A program made the position numbers and the translations under genes. From Sumerlaeia bacterium (GTDB lineage Bacteria > Sumerlaeota > Sumerlaeia > SLMS01 > JAHLLQ01), in NCBI GenBank assembly GCA_040219255.1, contig JAVJSW010000037.1, positions 160,001 through 224,000 of the forward strand: a stretch of 64,000 nt of DNA, in the 5' to 3' direction. A model generated the notes under the pieces. It was not told the DNA's origin and did not search any database. It saw only the letters and a program-made list of their open reading frames with translations. Shown piece by piece: positions 12,911-21,756 of this stretch (position 1 is its first letter; each line of letters opens with the position of its first letter).

Positions 12911-14020
12911 ATGCCCCACATCGTCCACGTTTACAAAGATTACTGGCCGCCGATTCTCGGCGGGATCGAGCGCACCGTGCATTGGATGGCGACGGGTCTG
13001 GTGCGGCGTGGGTACGAGGTGACGGTGCTGGTGAATTCGCGCGAACGGGCGGCGCGCGAGCGTGAGCTGGACGGCGTTCGGATCGTCGAGGTGGGGGAGT
13101 GGCGGCGGTTCGCTTCGGCGCCGTTGTCGCCCGGATTCCCGGCGGCGATGCGGCGGCTGAAGGCGGATGTGTGGCATTTCCACGTGCCGAATCCGACGGG
13201 GGATGTGTCGTATTTGCTGACGCAGCCGGCGGGGCGGGTCGTGGCGACCTATCACAGCGACATTGTGCGTCAGAAGTGGGCACTGTGGGCCTATGGGCCG
13301 GTGCTGCGGCGGTTCCTGGCGCGGTGCGACGTGGTGATGCCAACATCGCCGCGGCTGATCGACAGCTCGCCGTTCCTGCGGGCGGTGCGCGAGAAGTGCG
13401 AAGTCGTGCCGTTGGCAATGCCGCTGGACAAGTACGAGCGCACCGGCGCGAGCGGCCTCCGCGCCCGAGAGGTCAAGGCCCGCTACAAGGGCTTCCCGCT
13501 CCTGGTGTTCCTGGGGAAGTTACGCTATTACAAAGGTCTGCAATTCCTCGTGAGCGCCATGCGGAGCGTCCCCCACGCCCACGCGCTCATTATCGGCGAG
13601 GGACCGGAGGGGCCGAACCTGGAGGTCCTGGCGCGGGAGCTGGGCGTGGCGGACCGGGTGCATTTCCTGGGCGAGTTGGACGACGACGACGTGGTGGCGC
13701 ATTTGCAGGCGGCGGACGTGTTCGTACTGCCGAGTCATTTGAACTCCGAGGCTTATGGGCTTTCTCAGATTGAGGCGATGGCTTGCGGGTTGCCGGTGGT
13801 GAGTTGCGATTTGCCGACCGGTGTGCCCTTCGTGAATCGGCACGGAGAGACCGGTCTGGTGGTTCCTCCCGGGGACGACGGGGCGCTGGCGGAGGCGATT
13901 TCGAGGCTGCTGTCTGACGAGCGACTGCGTTTTGCCATGGGCGAGGCGGCCTATCGGCGGGCCCGGGAAGTGTTCTCGGTGGAGGCCATGATGGAAAATT
14001 TGGTGAGGATTTACGTTTGA
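12911..14020 (+). CDS. Glycosyltransferase family 4
   Basis: GGIE, YHSDIV, YYKGL, EAYGLSQIEAMACG (Ex7E). Confidence 0.9.
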   Translation: MPHIVHVYKDYWPPILGGIERTVHWMATGLVRRGYEVTVLVNSRERAARERELDGVRIVEVGEWRRFASAPLSPGFPAAMRRLKADVWHFHVPNPTGDVSYLLTQPAGRVVATYHSDIVRQKWALWAYGPVLRRFLARCDVVMPTSPRLIDSSPFLRAVREKCEVVPLAMPLDKYERTGASGLRAREVKARYKGFPLLVFLGKLRYYKGLQFLVSAMRSVPHAHALIIGEGPEGPNLEVLARELGVADRVHFLGELDDDDVVAHLQAADVFVLPSHLNSEAYGLSQIEAMACGLPVVSCDLPTGVPFVNRHGETGLVVPPGDDGALAEAISRLLSDERLRFAMGEAAYRRAREVFSVEAMMENLVRIYV

Positions 14021-14064
14021 AAACATTAATCGTCTCAAATTGCGACAATTTGCCTCGTATTTTT

Positions 14065-14271
14065 TCAACTTAAGTTTTCGTGGTAGAAATCGATCATTTT
14101 TTGAATGTCCTCGTGACAGGCTGTGCAGCTCAGCCCGGCTGTCGTTCGAAGGCCAATGTCCTCCACCGTGGGTTCTTGATTTTGAGCGACTTGACTCTGG
14201 ATGCAGCGCAGCACGACCTCCCGTGGGATGCCGTGACACACACAAATTAATTCACAAGTTTTAGATTGCAT
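14065..14271 (-). CDS. Bfd-like [2Fe-2S]-binding small protein (68 aa)
   Basis: ICVCHGI ... TTAGLSCTACHEDI (CxC...CxxC); AGGA RBS before MQSKT. Confidence 0.75.
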   Translation of the reverse strand: MQSKTCELICVCHGIPREVVLRCIQSQVAQNQEPTVEDIGLRTTAGLSCTACHEDIQKMIDFYHENLS

Positions 14272-14348
14272 CGAACAATTCCTGATGGTTGTTGCGGACA
14301 AAGAAGCTTGGATTGACGTCAGAGGCGCCGACCCGAGAGGATTTTGCT

Positions 14349-15563
14349 ATGGAGGCCAGAATACTGACCTTGCGAGACAAGCCGGACGTTCTTGATCCCA
14401 GTTGCGGGGAGCCGGAGATGACAGGCCATTCCCATTTGGTTCTCGTGGTGGACGACGACGGTCCCTTTCTCGGGCTGATGTGCCGGTTCCTCGAACGCCT
14501 CGATTATGAAGTCCTCCAGGCCGCGACGCTTGAGGAGGCGGTGGAGATCGCGAAAGAATTCGCCCCCGAGATCGCCTTCGTCAACGGTCACCTTCCGGAT
14601 GGGGAGGGAATTCATCTGATTCGTCCGCTGCAGGAGGCGGACCCGGACGTGGTCGTGCTGATGACGTCGGCCAATCGGAGCCTGCAATTCGTTCTGGCGG
14701 CGATGCGCGAAGGGGCCTCGGATTTCCTGTCGAAACCCCTGGAGTTCGATACGCTCGAAGAGAAGCTGAAGGAACACCTCGCAAAGCGCAAGGCCCGCAT
14801 CGAAAGCCGCAACTATCAGAAGCTGCTGGAGGAGGCGGTGGCCACGCGGACGATGGAACTGGGCGAGGCGCTCGACAAACTCTCCCGCGTGAACGACCAG
14901 ATGTCGGCCTCCTATGCGGAAGCGCTGGAATTGCTGCATCGCGCGGCGGCCTATCGCGACGACGACACCGGCCACCATGTGAGCCGCATTCGGCTCTTCA
15001 CGCGGGAATTGGCGTTGGCGCACGGGCTCGGCGCGGAGCAGGCCGAACTGATCGCCCAGGCCAGCGCGATGCACGATATCGGCAAGATTGGCATTCCGGA
15101 CCAGATTCTTCTCAAGCCCGGCAAGCTGACCCCCGACGAATGGGAGGTCATGAAAGCCCACACGACCATCGGCGCGAACATCATCGGCGGCAAGAAGACG
15201 CCGTTGCTGGACATGTGCCGCGAGATCGCCCTGACGCATCACGAGAAATGGAACGGCGGCGGTTATCCGGCGGGCCTGGCGGGCGAGGCGATTCCGCTGG
15301 CGGGGCGGCTGGTGGCGATCGTCGATGTGTTCGACGCGCTGACCCACGCCCGGGTTTACAAACCCGCTTTTTCGACGGAGAAAGCGATTCAGATCATCGA
15401 GGAGTCGCGAGGCAGCCATTTCGACCCGCGGATCGTGGAGTGCTTTTTGCCACTGATCCCCCGGCTGAAAGAAATGGAAGCCTCCTTCGACGAGGAAATC
15501 TCCGCCGAGGTGCTGTCGCTCCACGCCCGGCGGCAGAAGCACGCCGCCGGGGAAGGCATCTGA
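14349..15563 (+). CDS. RpfG-like response regulator: REC + HD-GYP c-di-GMP phosphodiesterase
   Basis: VVDDD receiver; TGHH, HDIGKIGIP, HHEKWNGGGYP, HFDP; GAGAGG RBS before ATG 14349. Confidence 0.92.
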   Translation: MEARILTLRDKPDVLDPSCGEPEMTGHSHLVLVVDDDGPFLGLMCRFLERLDYEVLQAATLEEAVEIAKEFAPEIAFVNGHLPDGEGIHLIRPLQEADPDVVVLMTSANRSLQFVLAAMREGASDFLSKPLEFDTLEEKLKEHLAKRKARIESRNYQKLLEEAVATRTMELGEALDKLSRVNDQMSASYAEALELLHRAAAYRDDDTGHHVSRIRLFTRELALAHGLGAEQAELIAQASAMHDIGKIGIPDQILLKPGKLTPDEWEVMKAHTTIGANIIGGKKTPLLDMCREIALTHHEKWNGGGYPAGLAGEAIPLAGRLVAIVDVFDALTHARVYKPAFSTEKAIQIIEESRGSHFDPRIVECFLPLIPRLKEMEASFDEEISAEVLSLHARRQKHAAGEGI

Positions 15564-15567
15564 CAGC

Positions 15568-15595
15568 TTGACCTTACCCCGGGAATGCTGAGGAT
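15568..15595 (+). promoter_or_regulatory. Putative sigma70-type promoter for the structured RNA and slipin gene
   Basis: TTGACC at 15568 and weak -10 GAGGAT at 15590; predicted start near the 5' end of the closing stem. Confidence 0.4.
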
Positions 15596-15598
15596 CGG

Positions 15599-15870
15599 GC
15601 CGGTCGTTTGTCTTCCGCCCGGGGTTCCGTACGCCCCGGAGGCATGCCCCGGCTCTGCCGGTTCTGGATGTTCCAGGAATTCAGACGCTCACACGCGGGT
15701 TCGAATCCCGCACAAGGCTCAGGTCCTTGCCTACCGGCTCCATCGGCTGGTTGCGGGGGACCGGCTTTTCCTGGCGCGGCGAGGCGCCGTCGATCCTTCG
15801 GGATGGACGGTCCTTGGCCGGCCGCTCGCGGGCGCGGCGCCCGGGGGCCGAAGGGCTACGGACGATCGGT
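15599..15870 (+). ncRNA. Putative structured tRNA-mimic ncRNA or leader upstream of the slipin gene
   Basis: 13-bp closing helix 15599-15611/15858-15870; 9-bp helix 15657-15665/15757-15765; T-arm GCGGG-TTCGAAT-CCCGC; CAAGG-CTCAGGT-CCTTG hairpin; cUUCGg hairpin 15787-15810. Confidence 0.7.
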
Positions 15871-16017
15871 TGGCAGCCAACGGGGCCACGCGCCCCCGAA
15901 GCCCCCCGCCGCATCCTCCCGCCGCTTCCGCCTTCGAGGCGAACGTCACGGGTTTTGGAAGGGACCGGTTCTCCGCAACCGCCACCGGACCGATTCCGCG
16001 TCAGGAAGCGCGACACG

Positions 16018-17169
16018 ATGCTGTCTTTCATCAAGGCTCCGGAAGGTTATCAGACCGTCCTTTACCGCAACGGATCGCCGGTGCGGCTCCTCGTCGCGCG
16101 GCCTAAGCCCTACTTGGTCTGGGGAACCGGGTTCACCCGCGTCTGCTGCCCGCTGACGGATCCGGTGATCAACGCGTCGCAGCCGACGGTTTCGCCCTTG
16201 ATGGACAAGGATTGGGTGCGCGGCCATCTGGACGACATTTTGGTCGAACCGGGCGAGCGCGTTCTTGTCTGGCTTGAAGGCCGTCTGGTGCGGGTTCTGA
16301 CGGCGGGCCGCTGGGGTATCTGGAAGACGCCATCGCCGATTCGGCTCGACCGCCTGACGCTCGACGATCCGCAGTACGCCCCCGGCGACGCCAAGGCGGT
16401 CGCCGCTCTTCGCTCGTGGCCGGCGGCCTCCAACGTGCTGGAATTCGTGAACCTGGGCGTGGGCCAGCAGGGGCTCGTCTACGTGGGCGGGGAATTGCTG
16501 CGGACGCTCGGCCCCGGGATTCACGCCTTCTGGCGGCAAGGCATCGATTACGACGTCCTGATCGAGGACCTGCGGCTGAAGACGCTGACGCTGACGGGCC
16601 AGGAACTGATGACGCAGGACCGCGTGACGCTGCGGATGAACTTCGATGTGGCCTATCGCGTCACCGATCCCCAGAGGGCTGTCCTCGAAGCGGAAGCCCC
16701 CGCCAAATTGCTCTATACCCGCGCGCAATTGCTGCTGCGGGAAGGCGTTGGGGGGCGGACGCTGGACCAATTGCTCGAGGAGCGCGACTCCCTCGCCAAG
16801 GAAGTCGAGGCGGGCCTTCAACCCTTCGCCGAAAAGTTCGGCATGGGGGTGGAATTCGCCGGTCTACGGGATGTGATCCTGCCCGGCGACATGCGCGAAA
16901 TCCTCAACCAGGTCGTCCGCGCCCGCAAGGAAGCGGAAGCCAATGTGATCCGGCGCCGCGAGGAAACCGCCTCGACCCGCAGTCTTCTGAACACCGCCAA
17001 AGTCATCGACGAGAACCCGACGATGTTGCGGCTCAAAGAGTTGGAGGCCTTGCAGGAAATCGTCGGCAAGATCGAGACGCTCAACGTGTACGATGGATTG
17101 CAGGGCTTGCTGGGCGGCGTTCGCCTGCGGGATTTGCCGCCGGGGGAGAAGGCGAAGTCGGGCGAGTAG
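16018..17169 (+). CDS. Slipin family SPFH/Band 7 protein
   Basis: GQELMTQDRVTLRMN, RDVILPGDMREILNQV, RREETASTRSLLNTAK, LRLKELEAL; ATG 16018 after AGGA. Confidence 0.9.
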   Translation: MLSFIKAPEGYQTVLYRNGSPVRLLVARPKPYLVWGTGFTRVCCPLTDPVINASQPTVSPLMDKDWVRGHLDDILVEPGERVLVWLEGRLVRVLTAGRWGIWKTPSPIRLDRLTLDDPQYAPGDAKAVAALRSWPAASNVLEFVNLGVGQQGLVYVGGELLRTLGPGIHAFWRQGIDYDVLIEDLRLKTLTLTGQELMTQDRVTLRMNFDVAYRVTDPQRAVLEAEAPAKLLYTRAQLLLREGVGGRTLDQLLEERDSLAKEVEAGLQPFAEKFGMGVEFAGLRDVILPGDMREILNQVVRARKEAEANVIRRREETASTRSLLNTAKVIDENPTMLRLKELEALQEIVGKIETLNVYDGLQGLLGGVRLRDLPPGEKAKSGE

Positions 17170-17181
17170 CCGCCCCCATCG

Positions 17182-18504
17182 CTACTCCTCCCTTGGAATC
17201 ACCTTCTCGTGGGGGTCGATGGCGGGGGAGCCGGTGGCTTTGTCCAGCGCCTCCAGCATCTGCGCGTCGGTGATGTGCTCCAGACGCTCGGCGGTGCCGT
17301 GGACGTGGTCGGGGCGGATGCCCGCTTCCTGGACGAGGTAGCCCTCCCAGAGGCGGTGGCGGCGGATCATCCGGGCGGCGTAGTGTTCGCCGCGCTCGGT
17401 CAGGCTGATCATGCCGCTCTGGCGATGGATGCGGCGTTTGTGGCGCATTTTGCGAAGCGCCAGCGCGAACGCCACCCGCCCCAACAGGCCCGTCGCCAGG
17501 ACACCGCGGATTTGTGCTTCTTCCACTTCGGCGCGATGATGGTCGGCCTTTTCGCCGGCGCGCCAGAGCAGGCCCAGGATATCTTCGCGAGTCACCGTGA
17601 CGGCGAGGCTGAGGCGCCGCCAGGCCTGCGGGATGAGGCCCCGCTGCGGCGCCAGGAGCACGGTGGCCCCGAACAGCAAGCCCGCCATGGTGGCCATGGA
17701 ACCGGCCGTGTTGGCTTCGTCCGCCAACCCGAACCACCCGGGCACGATCAGCGCCGCCCCATGACCCAGGACCGCGCAGAGCGCCGCCACCACGAGGCTG
17801 AGCGCGATCATGACGCTGAGCCGATTCGTCAGCAGGCGGGCGCACGCCCCCGGCACCACCAGCATGGCGATCACCAGGATCGACCCGACGCTGTTGAACG
17901 CCGCCACCGTCGTCGCGGCCACGATCATCATCAGCAGATAGTGCATCAGGGTGGCGTTGATGCCTTGCGTGTTGGCCATTTCGGGATCGAAGGCGCTGAT
18001 GGTCAGTTCCTTGAACAGCGCCACGACGAAGATCAGGTTCACCAGCAGCATCACGGCCCCGGCCACGGCGGCGCGGGGGATGACCGTTTCGCCGATCTGG
18101 TAGCTGTCCAGGTAGGTCAACTCGAGCGCTCCGTAGAGGACGCAGTCGGGGTCCAGGTCCGTGTCGTGGGCCGCTACGCGGATCAGGATCAGGCCGATGG
18201 CGAAGAGCGCGGTGAAGGTCACGCCCATGGCGGCGTCGGCCTCCACCCCACCCCAGCGCTCGATGGCGGAAATCAGGAACGTCGTCACCAGACCGACGAG
18301 CACCGCGCCCAGAAGCATCGCCAGCGATGTCCGGGTTCCGGTCAGCAGGAAGGCCACCGCCAGACCGGGGAGAACGGCGTGGCTGAGGGCGTCGCCCATC
18401 ATGGACATCTTGCGCAAAATCAACCAGTTACCAGCCAGCGCGCAGGCCATCGCGGCGATTCCGCCAGTGATGACGATCCAGGTGTCGAAAATCGTCCAGG
18501 TCAT
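17182..18504 (-). CDS. Mn/Zn/Fe ABC permease (TroD/MntD-like) with C-terminal DtxR-type domain
   Basis: MMGDALSHAVLPG permease motif; C-terminal RRHRLWEGYL...VHGTAERLEH...DPH. Confidence 0.9.
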   Translation of the reverse strand: MTWTIFDTWIVITGGIAAMACALAGNWLILRKMSMMGDALSHAVLPGLAVAFLLTGTRTSLAMLLGAVLVGLVTTFLISAIERWGGVEADAAMGVTFTALFAIGLILIRVAAHDTDLDPDCVLYGALELTYLDSYQIGETVIPRAAVAGAVMLLVNLIFVVALFKELTISAFDPEMANTQGINATLMHYLLMMIVAATTVAAFNSVGSILVIAMLVVPGACARLLTNRLSVMIALSLVVAALCAVLGHGAALIVPGWFGLADEANTAGSMATMAGLLFGATVLLAPQRGLIPQAWRRLSLAVTVTREDILGLLWRAGEKADHHRAEVEEAQIRGVLATGLLGRVAFALALRKMRHKRRIHRQSGMISLTERGEHYAARMIRRHRLWEGYLVQEAGIRPDHVHGTAERLEHITDAQMLEALDKATGSPAIDPHEKVIPREE

Positions 18505-19928
18505 GTCTGCACCATTCCCTTGAGCGGGTGCGGGCTGGGCGGAACGACGCTGCCGCGGTCCGCCAGCATCGTCTCCAGCCGCGCGATCAAGTCCGGTTCG
18601 AGCACATGCTCGATCGTGTCCGCGCCGGTGTCCACGTGGCTGGGCGCTACGTCGGCGTGGGCGATCAGGTACATCTCCCACAGGCGGTGGGTGCGCACGG
18701 CGTGAACGGCGGTGTAATAACCCAGGCGCGTCAGGGCGTAGCCGCCGCCCTTGTGGCGGATCAGGCCCTGGCGGATGTGGCGGGCCAGGGCGCGCTGCAG
18801 TTCGGCGCGGGTCCAGGAGCGTTCGGCCAGCAGGTCCTCGAAAGAGGCGGCCGTTTCCTTAGGGTCGTGGTGCTCGCGCTCGGCGAGTTCGTAGAGACCC
18901 CGCAGCAGGTGCTGGCTCGTGACTTTTCGCCGCAGCATGAGGCCCGCTCGCGAGCGATGCACGACGCCCCGGCGCGTGCCGAGCAGGAGGCTCAGGACGA
19001 ACAGCAGCGTCGCCACCAGAACGATGATCGCTCCGGCGGGAAAGGCGCCCATGAGGGCGCTCGCCGCCGAGCCGAAGAGACCGCTCAGGGCGCCGATGGT
19101 GCTCGAAATCGCCGCCATCCATCGCAAATCGTCGGTCCAGAATCGCGCCGCCGACGGAGGAATCACCAGCAGCGCGACCATCATGATGAGGCCCACGGCC
19201 TGGAGCCCGATCACCGTCACTAGCACCACCAGGGCCATCAGCGTGGCGTCCAGCAGGCCCGTCGGCCAGCCCTGTGTCCGGCCGAATTCCGCGTCGAAGC
19301 AGAGCAGGCCGAACTCCTTGAAGAGCGCGGCGCAGATGGCCGCCGCCACCGCCGCGAAAATCGCGATCAGCAGCGCGTCGCTCAACAGCATTGAGGCCGT
19401 CTTGCCGTAGATGAAGGACTTGAGGCCCGCCGCTTCGCCCGCGCCGAGGCGCTGGGCCACGCCAAGCAGGACGATGCCGAAGCCGAAGAACGTGCTGAGT
19501 ACGATAGCCAGGGCGACATCTTCTTTCAGCCGCGCGGTCTTGCGGATCAGTGTCACGGCGGCGGTGCCGAGGATGCCGCTGATGGCCGCGCCCAGCAGCA
19601 GACCGCCCAGATGCTTGCCCGATCCGCCCGCCAGCGCCATGACCACGAAGGCCGCGCAAATCCCCGGCAGCATGGCGTGGCTGATCGCGTCGGAAAGCAG
19701 GGCGCGCTTGCGCAGCAGCAGGAACGTCCCCACCAGGCCGGACGCGAGCCCCAGCAGCATCGTGCCGATGACCACGACGCGCGTGTTGTAATCCTGGAAC
19801 GTCAAGACCCGCACGAAATCGCTGGCGAAGGTGGACTCGGCCATCGCCGCCACCGGGACGAGCGGCAGCAGCGCCAGCGCCAACCACGACAGTTCCCGCC
19901 TTCCGCCGCTAGTTCGACGAAATCGCAT
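18501..19928 (-). CDS. Mn/Zn/Fe ABC permease (TroC/MntC-like) with C-terminal DtxR-type domain
   Basis: LLSDAISHAMLPG; C-terminal RTHRLWEMYL...ADTIEH...SPH. Confidence 0.9.
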   Translation of the reverse strand: MRFRRTSGGRRELSWLALALLPLVPVAAMAESTFASDFVRVLTFQDYNTRVVVIGTMLLGLASGLVGTFLLLRKRALLSDAISHAMLPGICAAFVVMALAGGSGKHLGGLLLGAAISGILGTAAVTLIRKTARLKEDVALAIVLSTFFGFGIVLLGVAQRLGAGEAAGLKSFIYGKTASMLLSDALLIAIFAAVAAAICAALFKEFGLLCFDAEFGRTQGWPTGLLDATLMALVVLVTVIGLQAVGLIMMVALLVIPPSAARFWTDDLRWMAAISSTIGALSGLFGSAASALMGAFPAGAIIVLVATLLFVLSLLLGTRRGVVHRSRAGLMLRRKVTSQHLLRGLYELAEREHHDPKETAASFEDLLAERSWTRAELQRALARHIRQGLIRHKGGGYALTRLGYYTAVHAVRTHRLWEMYLIAHADVAPSHVDTGADTIEHVLEPDLIARLETMLADRGSVVPPSPHPLKGMVQT

Positions 19929-20727: not shown

Positions 20728-21756
20728 CTATTCGGGTCCGTTCTGGCTCAGTTGTCCCTGCATGCCCCGTACCGGAGCTTCTCCGCCCAGCGCCCGCGCG
20801 ATCAGGGTCGCATTGTTGTCGATCATGCCGACGTAGGTGCCTTCGTAGGTGCCTTCCTTGCCCATGGCGTCGCTGAAGAGCGAACCGCCGATGCGCACGT
20901 CGTGGCCTTTGGCGCGGGCGCCTTCGATCAGGGCGCGGACGTTCTTGTCGGCGATGGTGCTCTCCACGAACACGGCCGGGATTTGCCGCTCGACCAGCAG
21001 GTCCACCAGCCGGTTGATGTCTTGCAGGCTCGCCTCGCTTTCCGTCGAAAGGCCCTGGATGCCCATGACCTCCAGGTCGTAGGCGCGCCCCATGTAGTTG
21101 AAGGCGTCGTGGGCCGTGACCAGGACGCGCTGGCCTTGCGGGATGCTGGCGATGGCGGTGCGGGTGTAGTCGTCCAGGGCCTGGAGGGTTTCGCGGTAGG
21201 TCTGCGCGTTGGCCGCATAGGTCTCGGCGCCCGCCGGGTCGAACTCGCTGAGAGCTTTTTCCACCGCGCCGGTCGCCAGCAGCCAGCCCTGCACGTCCAT
21301 CCAGACGTGAGGGTCGGGATGGGCGTCATCGCCCTCGCCGAGGCCGATCACATAGTCCTCGTCGAGCATTTCGGTTACCGCATAGACCGGCTTCTGGCGC
21401 CCCGTGCGCATCAGCGCGTCGGTCAGGCGCCCTTCAAGAAGCAGGCCATTGTAGAAAATGATGTCGGCATCGAGGAGCTTGGCCAGGTCGCCGCGGGTCG
21501 GCGTGTAGAGGTGCGGGTCCGACCCGGCGCCGATCAGCACGGACACGTTGGCGCGGTCTCCTGCGATGTTCTTCACGATGTCGCCGATCATTCCGACGGT
21601 GGCGACGGCGCGGTAGGGCACGGCGAGCTCGCCGTCCGGGGCGGTGCTTTGTTGGCTGCCGGGAGGTGATTCGGACGAACCGCACCCGGCCCCGAAAGCG
21701 GCCAGGACGAGACAAATCCACAAGAAGGGCAAGGGTTGGGGGAGGCTTCGAAGCAT
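20728..21756 (-). CDS. Metal ABC substrate-binding lipoprotein (TroA-like)
   Basis: Lipobox GAGC; DPHLY, DPHVWMD, TAHDAF, SDAMG. Confidence 0.93.
   Translation of the reverse strand: MLRSLPQPLPFLWICLVLAAFGAGCGSSESPPGSQQSTAPDGELAVPYRAVATVGMIGDIVKNIAGDRANVSVLIGAGSDPHLYTPTRGDLAKLLDADIIFYNGLLLEGRLTDALMRTGRQKPVYAVTEMLDEDYVIGLGEGDDAHPDPHVWMDVQGWLLATGAVEKALSEFDPAGAETYAANAQTYRETLQALDDYTRTAIASIPQGQRVLVTAHDAFNYMGRAYDLEVMGIQGLSTESEASLQDINRLVDLLVERQIPAVFVESTIADKNVRALIEGARAKGHDVRIGGSLFSDAMGKEGTYEGTYVGMIDNNATLIARALGGEAPVRGMQGQLSQNGPE

Follow-up and report, generated by a model that had tools for sequence, protein, structure and literature searches.

In 2016, Burroughs and Aravind reportedly described modules in which an SPFH/Band-7 protein goes with 'a novel tRNA-like molecule', and proposed them as possible cofactors that provide a scaffold for RNA repair. 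In a passage of a later paper citing that work, this Band-7-associated tRNA-like RNA (b7a-tRNA) is said to 'strongly resemble[s] an authentic tRNA' and appears as experimentally unvalidated as of 2018 (10.1101/312249). Passages of the same source state that YrlA sometimes adjoins Band-7 genes, that most YrlAs are circularly permuted tRNAs with closed acceptor stems, and that the Salmonella RNA has the order T stem-loop (positions 33-49), acceptor stem (50-64) and D stem-loop (67-81) (10.1101/312249). In the literature searched, 'b7a-tRNA', or 'tRNA-like' combined with 'Band 7' and 'RNA repair', led only to 10.1101/312249, and a query on major vault protein, SPFH and tRNA gave nothing relevant. 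In Anabaena, the slipin gene alr0740 is derepressed 42-fold in a trcR mutant, together with rtcB, and TrcR also represses a tRNA operon according to the abstract of the same paper (PMC10272220). In P. aeruginosa, the SPFH gene PaFlo8 is placed inside an rtc locus in a section of another report (PMC13086221). Here, we analyse the non-coding leader of a slipin-family gene of a Sumerlaeia bacterium (assembly GCA_040219255.1, contig JAVJSW010000037.1), located in a 64,000-nt stretch of that contig (positions 160,001 to 224,000, forward strand), hereafter the window. The leader contains a perfect tRNA-type T-arm, a closed hairpin and a long rod, and with a probability of about 0.58 we read it as a reduced, permuted-type relative of the slipin-linked b7a-tRNA/YrlA RNAs that has been kept as a structured RNA. 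A preliminary description of the leader had called such an RNA undescribed. This does not stand, because a Band-7-associated tRNA-like RNA and YrlA beside Band-7 genes had been predicted in 2016, as the passages cited above report (10.1101/312249), and the leader looks like a reduced variant of this already predicted kind of Band-7/slipin and tRNA-like RNA pairing.

The T-arm and its counterparts upstream of other slipin genes

The elements of the leader that bear on its relationship to tRNA, and the gene that follows them, are listed below (P, pair probability).

15564..16017, + strand: non-coding leader between a response-regulator/HD-GYP gene and the slipin gene, 454 nt
15695..15711, + strand: perfect tRNA-type T-arm, GCGGG-TTCGAAT-CCCGC, P 1.00 in the full leader
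15713..15729, + strand: 5-bp hairpin with a 7-nt loop, CAAGG-CTCAGGT-CCTTG, 1 nt after the T-arm, P 0.50
16003..16009, + strand: Shine-Dalgarno-like AGGAAG region, read from the sequence, 9-15 nt before the slipin ATG
16018..17169, + strand: slipin-family gene, 383 amino acids, PF01145 (Band_7/SPFH) with E 3.2e-29 and 102.7 bits

The T-arm has five Watson-Crick pairs and a canonical loop, and its end lies 306 nt before the slipin ATG, within the modal 200-350 nt spacing of relatives. Outside the tRNA and tmRNA genes called by ARAGORN, the perfect motif NNNGG-TTCGAAT-CCNNN occurs only twice in the 5.35-Mb source genome (63.6% GC, 83 contigs, estimated 92% complete). Since the other occurrence belongs to the 3′ part of a tRNA-Ser gene that runs off its contig, the T-arm of the window is the sole orphan of the genome, and its presence is far beyond chance. 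Over 19 nt it is identical to the corresponding arm of tRNA-Glu(UUC) from the same genome. This identity, together with the GC-rich region in which many helices are possible, could be taken to mean that the hairpins of the leader arose by chance, or that an integrating element left the 3′ fragment of a tRNA here as an att site. However, the identity ends at the T-stem and is followed by neither an acceptor strand nor CCA, the neighbouring genes scanned include no mobile-element gene, and the orphan motif occupies a slot used in 29 of 45 slipin loci (see below). We consider such an origin very improbable.

The association with slipin genes was assessed using slipin homologues of 33-49% identity from the window's phylum (75 species genomes in the collection used), 401 Myxococcota-like genomes of a second phylum, metagenome and genome contigs, and one plasmid record. 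ARAGORN and the Rfam tRNA model independently revealed same-strand tRNA-like genes upstream of slipin in many of these loci. A covariance model (R1) was built from 24 elements and run over 51 loci (designated by L numbers), 50 of which have a slipin tblastn match; 45 of the latter include at least 450 nt of upstream DNA. A same-strand upstream match was obtained in 37 of these 45 loci, scoring at least 44 bits in 27, and the nearest match lies 200-350 nt before the estimated slipin start in 29. On the opposite strand there was no match in any of the 45. For comparison, 53 tRNA genes in 5.35 Mb correspond to a background of ~0.5% per kb per strand. The link between a tRNA-like element and slipin is thus general, and the tie between the two that the preliminary description had suspected is borne out. 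Members of the window's own phylum (L029, L030, L032-L034) have intact tRNA-like genes upstream of slipin. The eight loci without an R1 match are L035, L036, L037, L049, L053, L054, L055 and L073; in L035, L036, L037 and L049 the frames are short (228-336 amino acids) and match the SPFH part only.

Leaders of eleven loci (L063, L064, L065, L067, L068, L069, L074, L076, L077, L079 and L080) are near-identical over ~540 nt, and the anticodon triplet is their most variable spot, with six kinds present (CAA, GTC, CTT, CCA, CTC and GAA). Because the anticodons vary, ARAGORN names these eleven as different tRNAs, and for L030 and L071 it calls a 'Stop' anticodon. This is a matter for genome annotation, in which such elements come out as tRNAs with odd anticodons, 'Stop' included. 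In a metagenome contig (L041:82-665), six tRNA-like genes, all with an encoded CCA, stand directly upstream of a slipin homologue.

In the window, R1 (filters off) matches the T-arm at 15694-15711 (17.3 bits, E 4.3e-5, model positions 48-65) and, weakly, 15712-15729, which aligns to the anticodon arm of the model (positions 26-43) with 4.8 bits and an E-value of 0.28; the model is nowhere matched over its full length. The two local matches are permuted with respect to the model, in agreement with the earlier observation that the order of T-arm and hairpin differs from that of a normal tRNA. That the element is no normal tRNA is likewise confirmed: ARAGORN calls none in the window, RF00005 gives no match at E<=10 (15450-16150), and no Rfam family matches at gathering. 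With canonical tRNA and tmRNA the window shares the sequence and loop of the T-arm, but it lacks an acceptor stem, a D-arm, CCA and an ordered cloverleaf; the tmRNA of the genome is encoded on another contig, C4. The hairpin at 15713-15729 is either an analogue of a closed acceptor stem or an anticodon-arm-like hairpin. It occupies the position of the closed-acceptor hairpin in YrlA and in L042, L044 and L048, and because this closed 5-bp hairpin stands 1 nt after the T-arm, the permuted class fits. In the three loci, the T-arm is followed by a closed 7-bp hairpin, two bases, and a D-arm or D-like hairpin, and L042 and L044 continue to an anticodon arm. These permuted elements precede slipin genes at the following positions.

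L042:262-342, permuted element before a slipin gene
L044:1959-2045, permuted element before a slipin gene
L048:2657-2735, permuted element before a slipin gene

The Rfam YrlA model aligns the T, closed-acceptor and D parts of L042 with 23.1 bits and an E-value of 0.014 (gathering 69). The leader of the window resembles YrlA (RF02553) in that a T stem-loop is followed at once by a closed stem-loop, in that the consensus T-arm is almost that of the window, and in that long helices flank the tRNA-like part. It differs in having no RF02553 match at E<=10 (15450-16150) and no D stem-loop consensus, in that its rod lies 3′ of the element instead of enclosing it, and in that no gene for the partner Rsr/Ro60 (TROVE) was found in its genome. 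With b7a-tRNA, the leader shares the placement of a tRNA-derived element directly upstream of, and on one strand with, a gene of the Band-7/slipin family, at a spacing that matches that of relatives. On the other hand, it resembles an authentic tRNA in the T-arm only, RtcB is not adjacent, and a ~240-nt rod follows the element. Since no D-arm consensus follows the hairpin, the leader is not assigned to YrlA or b7a-tRNA themselves.

Reduction to the T-arm is found in relatives as well. R1 matches only the T-arm in L046, L058, L066 and L072 (~14 bits) and in the slipin-proximal element of L048, which lies 299 nt before slipin (18.3 bits), and other degraded forms score 18.9 (L062), 24.6 (L059) and 34.3 bits (L060). 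The degraded and T-arm-only forms adjoin open slipin frames of 441-505 amino acids, and the T-loop TTCGAAT is common to the window, L046, L048, L058, L066 and L072. In an alignment of L072 with L060, L059 and L062, ~35 nt comprising the D and anticodon arms are missing from L072, which keeps the T-arm and ~500 nt of conserved flanks; judging from this alignment, the lineage of L072 appears to have lost both arms by a ~35-nt deletion. The leader could also be seen as a relic, in which an ancestral b7a-tRNA has decayed, the T-arm survives by accident, and the spacer is a plain 5′ untranslated region devoid of RNA function. Only 17 of ~75 tRNA positions are recognisable, the phylum members named above keep intact genes, neither RtcB nor Rsr stands beside the slipin gene, and no homologue of the spacer was found, in the genomes of 40 relatives, in which compensatory changes could be seen, all of which would fit decay. 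Decay, however, would be expected to lead toward the AT-richer intergenic norm, yet the GC content of the leader is 0.698, compared with an intergenic median of 0.606 in this genome (392 gaps of 300-900 nt, crudely delimited), and only 1.5% of these gaps are as GC-rich; the neighbouring gap at 14020-14289 has 44-52% GC. In addition, the T-arm is flawless, the fold signal is strand-specific, and T-arm-only forms with an unchanged T-loop recur beside intact slipin frames. A relic is therefore unlikely in our judgement, but deserves real weight.

The rod and the fold of the leader

The leader as a whole (15564-16030, 467 nt) folds with z −2.04 (5 of 100 shuffles), and its predicted structure includes a rod downstream of the T-arm and hairpin. 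The predicted parts are as follows.

15619-15639, 15649-15661 and 15662-15678, + strand: three small 5′ hairpins, P 0.94, 0.89 and 0.69, respectively, in the full-leader ensemble; without comparative support
15745..15983, + strand: Y-shaped GC-rich rod, most helices P 0.86-1.00 in the full leader
15745-15771 with 15957-15983, + strand: basal helix of the rod
15773-15823, + strand: arm of the rod with a cUUCGg tip, UUCG hairpin P 0.99-1.0
15824-15953, + strand: long arm of the rod

The rod is ~240 nt long and ends ~35 nt before the slipin ATG. Folded alone, the region 15730-15990 reaches −153.9 kcal/mol, a value attained by none of 200 shuffles (z −3.65). Its minimum free energy (MFE) structure coincides with the centroid and makes up 9.6% of the ensemble. 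For the minus strand z is −1.56, the signal being strand-specific because of the many G-U pairs. A rod is also present in the Myxococcota-like loci, where ~150 nt upstream and ~280 nt downstream of the tRNA-like element are conserved. There, an unbranched rod of ~190-215 nt (75-80 bp) directly follows the element, and a U-tract comes after the rod, 40-90 nt before the slipin ATG. RNAalifold on 14 sequences yielded 80 rod pairs, 20 of them with changes on both sides, compared with 2-5 double-change pairs in slid controls; 96.5% of cells are paired, and none of 500 shuffles reaches any of five measures. No Rfam family was found on the flanks of the relatives' elements. The structured leader thus extends well beyond the tRNA-like element, and the rod of the window has about the same length and place as those of the relatives, but is Y-shaped and lacks the U-tract. 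The group with rod and U-tract comprises L063-L080, with examples at L063:839-1178 and L061:2607-2944.

The preliminary description had proposed a different architecture, namely, a closed RNA of ~270 nt consisting of a terminal rod and a four-arm junction (D, T, anticodon and a fourth arm), which would mimic tRNA-Leu(CAG) in a new way and serve, for example, as a decoy or sensor of anticodon nucleases.

15599..15870, + strand: closed structure of the preliminary description, with terminal helix 15599-15611 / 15858-15870; the complementarity is real

All the strings and elements quoted for this structure are present where it placed them. Thus, GCCGGTCGTTTGT (15599-15611) and ACGGACGATCGGT (15858-15870) can form 13 pairs, four of which are G-U, the inner complementarity 15657-15665 / 15757-15765 amounts to 9 bp, and hairpins are found at 15733-15751 and, with a cUUCGg loop, at ~15786-15811. 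When the 272-nt piece is isolated, the terminal helix does form (z −2.9 on the plus strand, 1 of 200 shuffles; −0.5 on the minus strand), with an MFE structure that represents 0.14% of the ensemble and lacks the inner helix. In the full leader (15564-16030), neither the terminal nor the inner helix belongs to the MFE structure. Forcing them costs +20.9 and +17.2 kcal/mol, respectively (mean P 0.000 for each), and +29.1 kcal/mol together; the hairpin at 15733-15751 has P 0.00, and the whole arrangement competes with a rod whose helices have P ~1.0. By these values, thermodynamics disfavours the closed four-arm fold within the full leader. No model supports the reading of a 'D-arm-like' or 'tRNA-Leu' element either, as the D-like hairpin matches none and the E-value of 0.28 for the anticodon-arm alignment is not significant. 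Several observations are nevertheless compatible with the proposal: the loop CTCAGGT fits the anticodon-loop pattern and R1 does align it, at 4.8 bits, to the anticodon arm, anticodons are hypervariable in related leaders, and during transcription the inner helix, which is followed by UUUU at 15766-15769, could form while the 3′ strand of the rod is still to be made. Overall, we find a closed mimic of this kind quite improbable.

A further alternative is a purely cis-acting leader, which would do no more than regulate the transcription or translation of slipin, as an attenuator or by masking its Shine-Dalgarno region, and in which the T-arm would be a docking motif. The end of the rod ~35 nt before the ATG, the terminator-like appearance of the relatives' U-tract, and the complementarity of 15768-15779 to 15996-16007, AGGAA included, would all be in line with such a role. 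Pairing of the Shine-Dalgarno-like region is, however, weakly predicted (helix P 0.31, bases mostly ~0.6 unpaired in the full-leader ensemble), the rod of the window is not followed by a U-tract, and regulation in cis leaves unexplained why relatives have a conserved tRNA-like element with a freely varying anticodon. An exclusively cis-acting leader thus seems improbable.

No public sequencing run of RNA is listed as carrying this stretch, and at >=99% identity it is found in one public DNA run only, which probably derives from the source sample. The contig from that run differs at 15776 (G>T), 15777 (C>G) and 15870 (T>C). All three differences lower the predicted fold energy both in the rod segment, from −153.9 to −158.9 kcal/mol, and in the segment of the preliminary description, 15870 T>C converting a G-U pair into G-C in either of them. 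The differences may be errors, because they come from a single contig with a depth of 3.9.

The slipin protein and a possible RNA-protein particle

The start of the slipin was placed at ATG 16018 because its homologue in L030 aligns from residue 2 and AGGAAG lies 9-15 nt upstream. The N-terminal ~145 residues have no Pfam match. At E<=1e-10 the protein has >4,600 relatives, and those that have a source name are annotated either as HflC-type regulators (stomatin/prohibitin superfamily) or as 'slipin family protein'. A search of contigs for related loci gave one relative among genome contigs and seven among metagenome contigs, all 33-41% identical, and thus no close orthologue. The phage collection contains no match, the plasmid collection contains one full-length relative (L048), and no family among the PADLOC anti-phage defence models matches the slipin. 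The AlphaFold model (pLDDT 83.4, 14-row alignment) consists of N-terminal beta modules, an SPFH domain and long helices at residues 290-351, in keeping with a Band_7 domain followed by a C-terminal coiled-coil helix. Slipin relatives of ~520 amino acids appear to carry extra N-terminal repeats.

In structure searches with the whole-monomer model, residues 133-359 matched stomatin, HflK/C and prohibitin (Z 15-17, the SPFH domain of stomatin reaching 17), and residues 4-341 matched chains of the major vault protein (MVP; Z 11.6-12.8, 12-13% identity). In the match with rabbit MVP (9z4w; Z 12.8, rmsd 4.8, 233 residues, 12% identity), model residues 5-341 correspond to MVP residues 324-699, and the alignment of the predicted fold takes in repeats 7-9, the shoulder and the cap helix of MVP. 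MVP is the only group of structural matches that spans the N-terminal part of the slipin. The likeness drawn to the vault is that of an SPFH-type cage former, for the slipin a putative one, linked to a small structured RNA; the slipin model is a prediction of the monomer. At 12% identity, with stomatin and prohibitin scoring higher over the SPFH part and with no TEP1/TROVE partner present, we treat the modelled resemblance to MVP as a lead.

On the reading favoured here, the 454-nt spacer would be the RNA half of a Band-7/slipin and tRNA-like RNA module, transcribed with slipin or just ahead of it. An oligomer of the slipin, in the form of a ring or a cage, might bind the T-loop elbow and the rod of the leader, its predicted layout of beta-repeats, SPFH domain and long helix being akin to the C-terminal half of MVP. 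The product would be a Ro/Y-RNA-like or vault-like particle for sensing or repairing tRNA damage, which could act as a scaffold or sensor for tRNA-cutting or tRNA-repairing enzymes, such as the RtcB encoded elsewhere in the genome. The D and anticodon arms would have been lost or remodelled beyond recognition. A more far-reaching version, which we regard as speculative and unlikely, holds that the slipin forms soluble, vault-like cages and that its own leader is an RNA partner pared down to the T-loop 'elbow' and rod, the two together being a bacterial counterpart of vault or Ro that senses or buffers tRNA attack. Were it true, the particle would need the elbow and not the whole tRNA shape, and the freely varying anticodon in the full form of relatives would be the sign of an arms race between the RNA and anticodon nucleases. 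On the main reading, the window supplies a naturally occurring minimal form, reduced to the T-arm and the rod, and together with the T-arm-only and permuted loci it points to the RNA features that the system needs. The greater length of the structured leader bears on how pull-down, cryo-EM and knockout experiments on a possible bacterial vault-like or Ro-like particle are planned.

Several points weigh against the leader being a reduced, permuted-type relative of these RNAs. No model recognises more than the T-arm, ARAGORN and Rfam (at gathering) giving nothing and neither tRNA nor YrlA matching at E<=10 in 15450-16150. The closed hairpin has 5 bp instead of 7 and a P of only 0.50, and it is followed by neither a D-arm consensus nor a GG-bearing D-loop. 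No homologue of the window's spacer was found in the genomes of 40 relatives, and the window itself therefore has no covariation. A DNA search of the spacer against its own genome and these 40 gave only short chance or tRNA T-arm matches. When a profile of the Myxococcota-type leader was run with nhmmer, the window had no meaningful match. The best slipin relatives are only 36-48% identical, and no other slipin locus shares synteny with the window. The R1 counts include the 24 training elements of the model, and loci from related organisms are not independent, 11 of the 45 being one near-identical group. The only RtcB gene of the genome is on another contig (C60), not adjacent to slipin. A search of the genome, estimated to be 92% complete, for TROVE/Rsr (PF05731) gave no match, and its positive controls were detected. 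Among relatives, RtcB lies within the 1.5-kb flanks of 3 of 46 loci, so that an RtcB neighbourhood is not universal. Finally, binding of RNA by the slipin, and any role in repair, are matters that we only infer.

Neighbouring genes and a possible second RNA-repair-type locus

Upstream, the leader borders on a regulatory gene.

14289-15563, + strand: response-regulator/HD-GYP gene, 5′ neighbour of the leader

In the gap between this gene and slipin (15564-16017) no codon periodicity was detected, and the open reading frames 15585-16106, 15608-16156 and 15681-16034 (minus strand) have no Pfam match; on these two grounds a coding reading of the gap was ruled out. No sigma-70-like promoter was found in 15200-16200, and three terminator-like sites in the same interval are not above shuffle expectation. 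No mobile-element genes are present among the neighbouring genes scanned. Downstream of slipin, two adjoining genes on the minus strand (17182-18681 and 18501-19928) encode ABC-3 metal-transporter permeases, both of which end in a C-terminal Fe_dep_repr_C domain (iron-dependent repressor dimerisation), an unusual fusion. A gene for a ZnuA-type binding protein is located at 20728-21756, also on the minus strand.

Elsewhere in the source genome (G000:C68:280711-283118; L086:212-2619), a gene for RlaP (PF10127, an RNA-repair nucleotidyltransferase) is followed by two odd tRNA-like genes, one a 77-nt 'tRNA-Leu(CAG)' without a long variable arm and the other with TTA as its anticodon. The region is a candidate for a second locus of the RNA-repair type.

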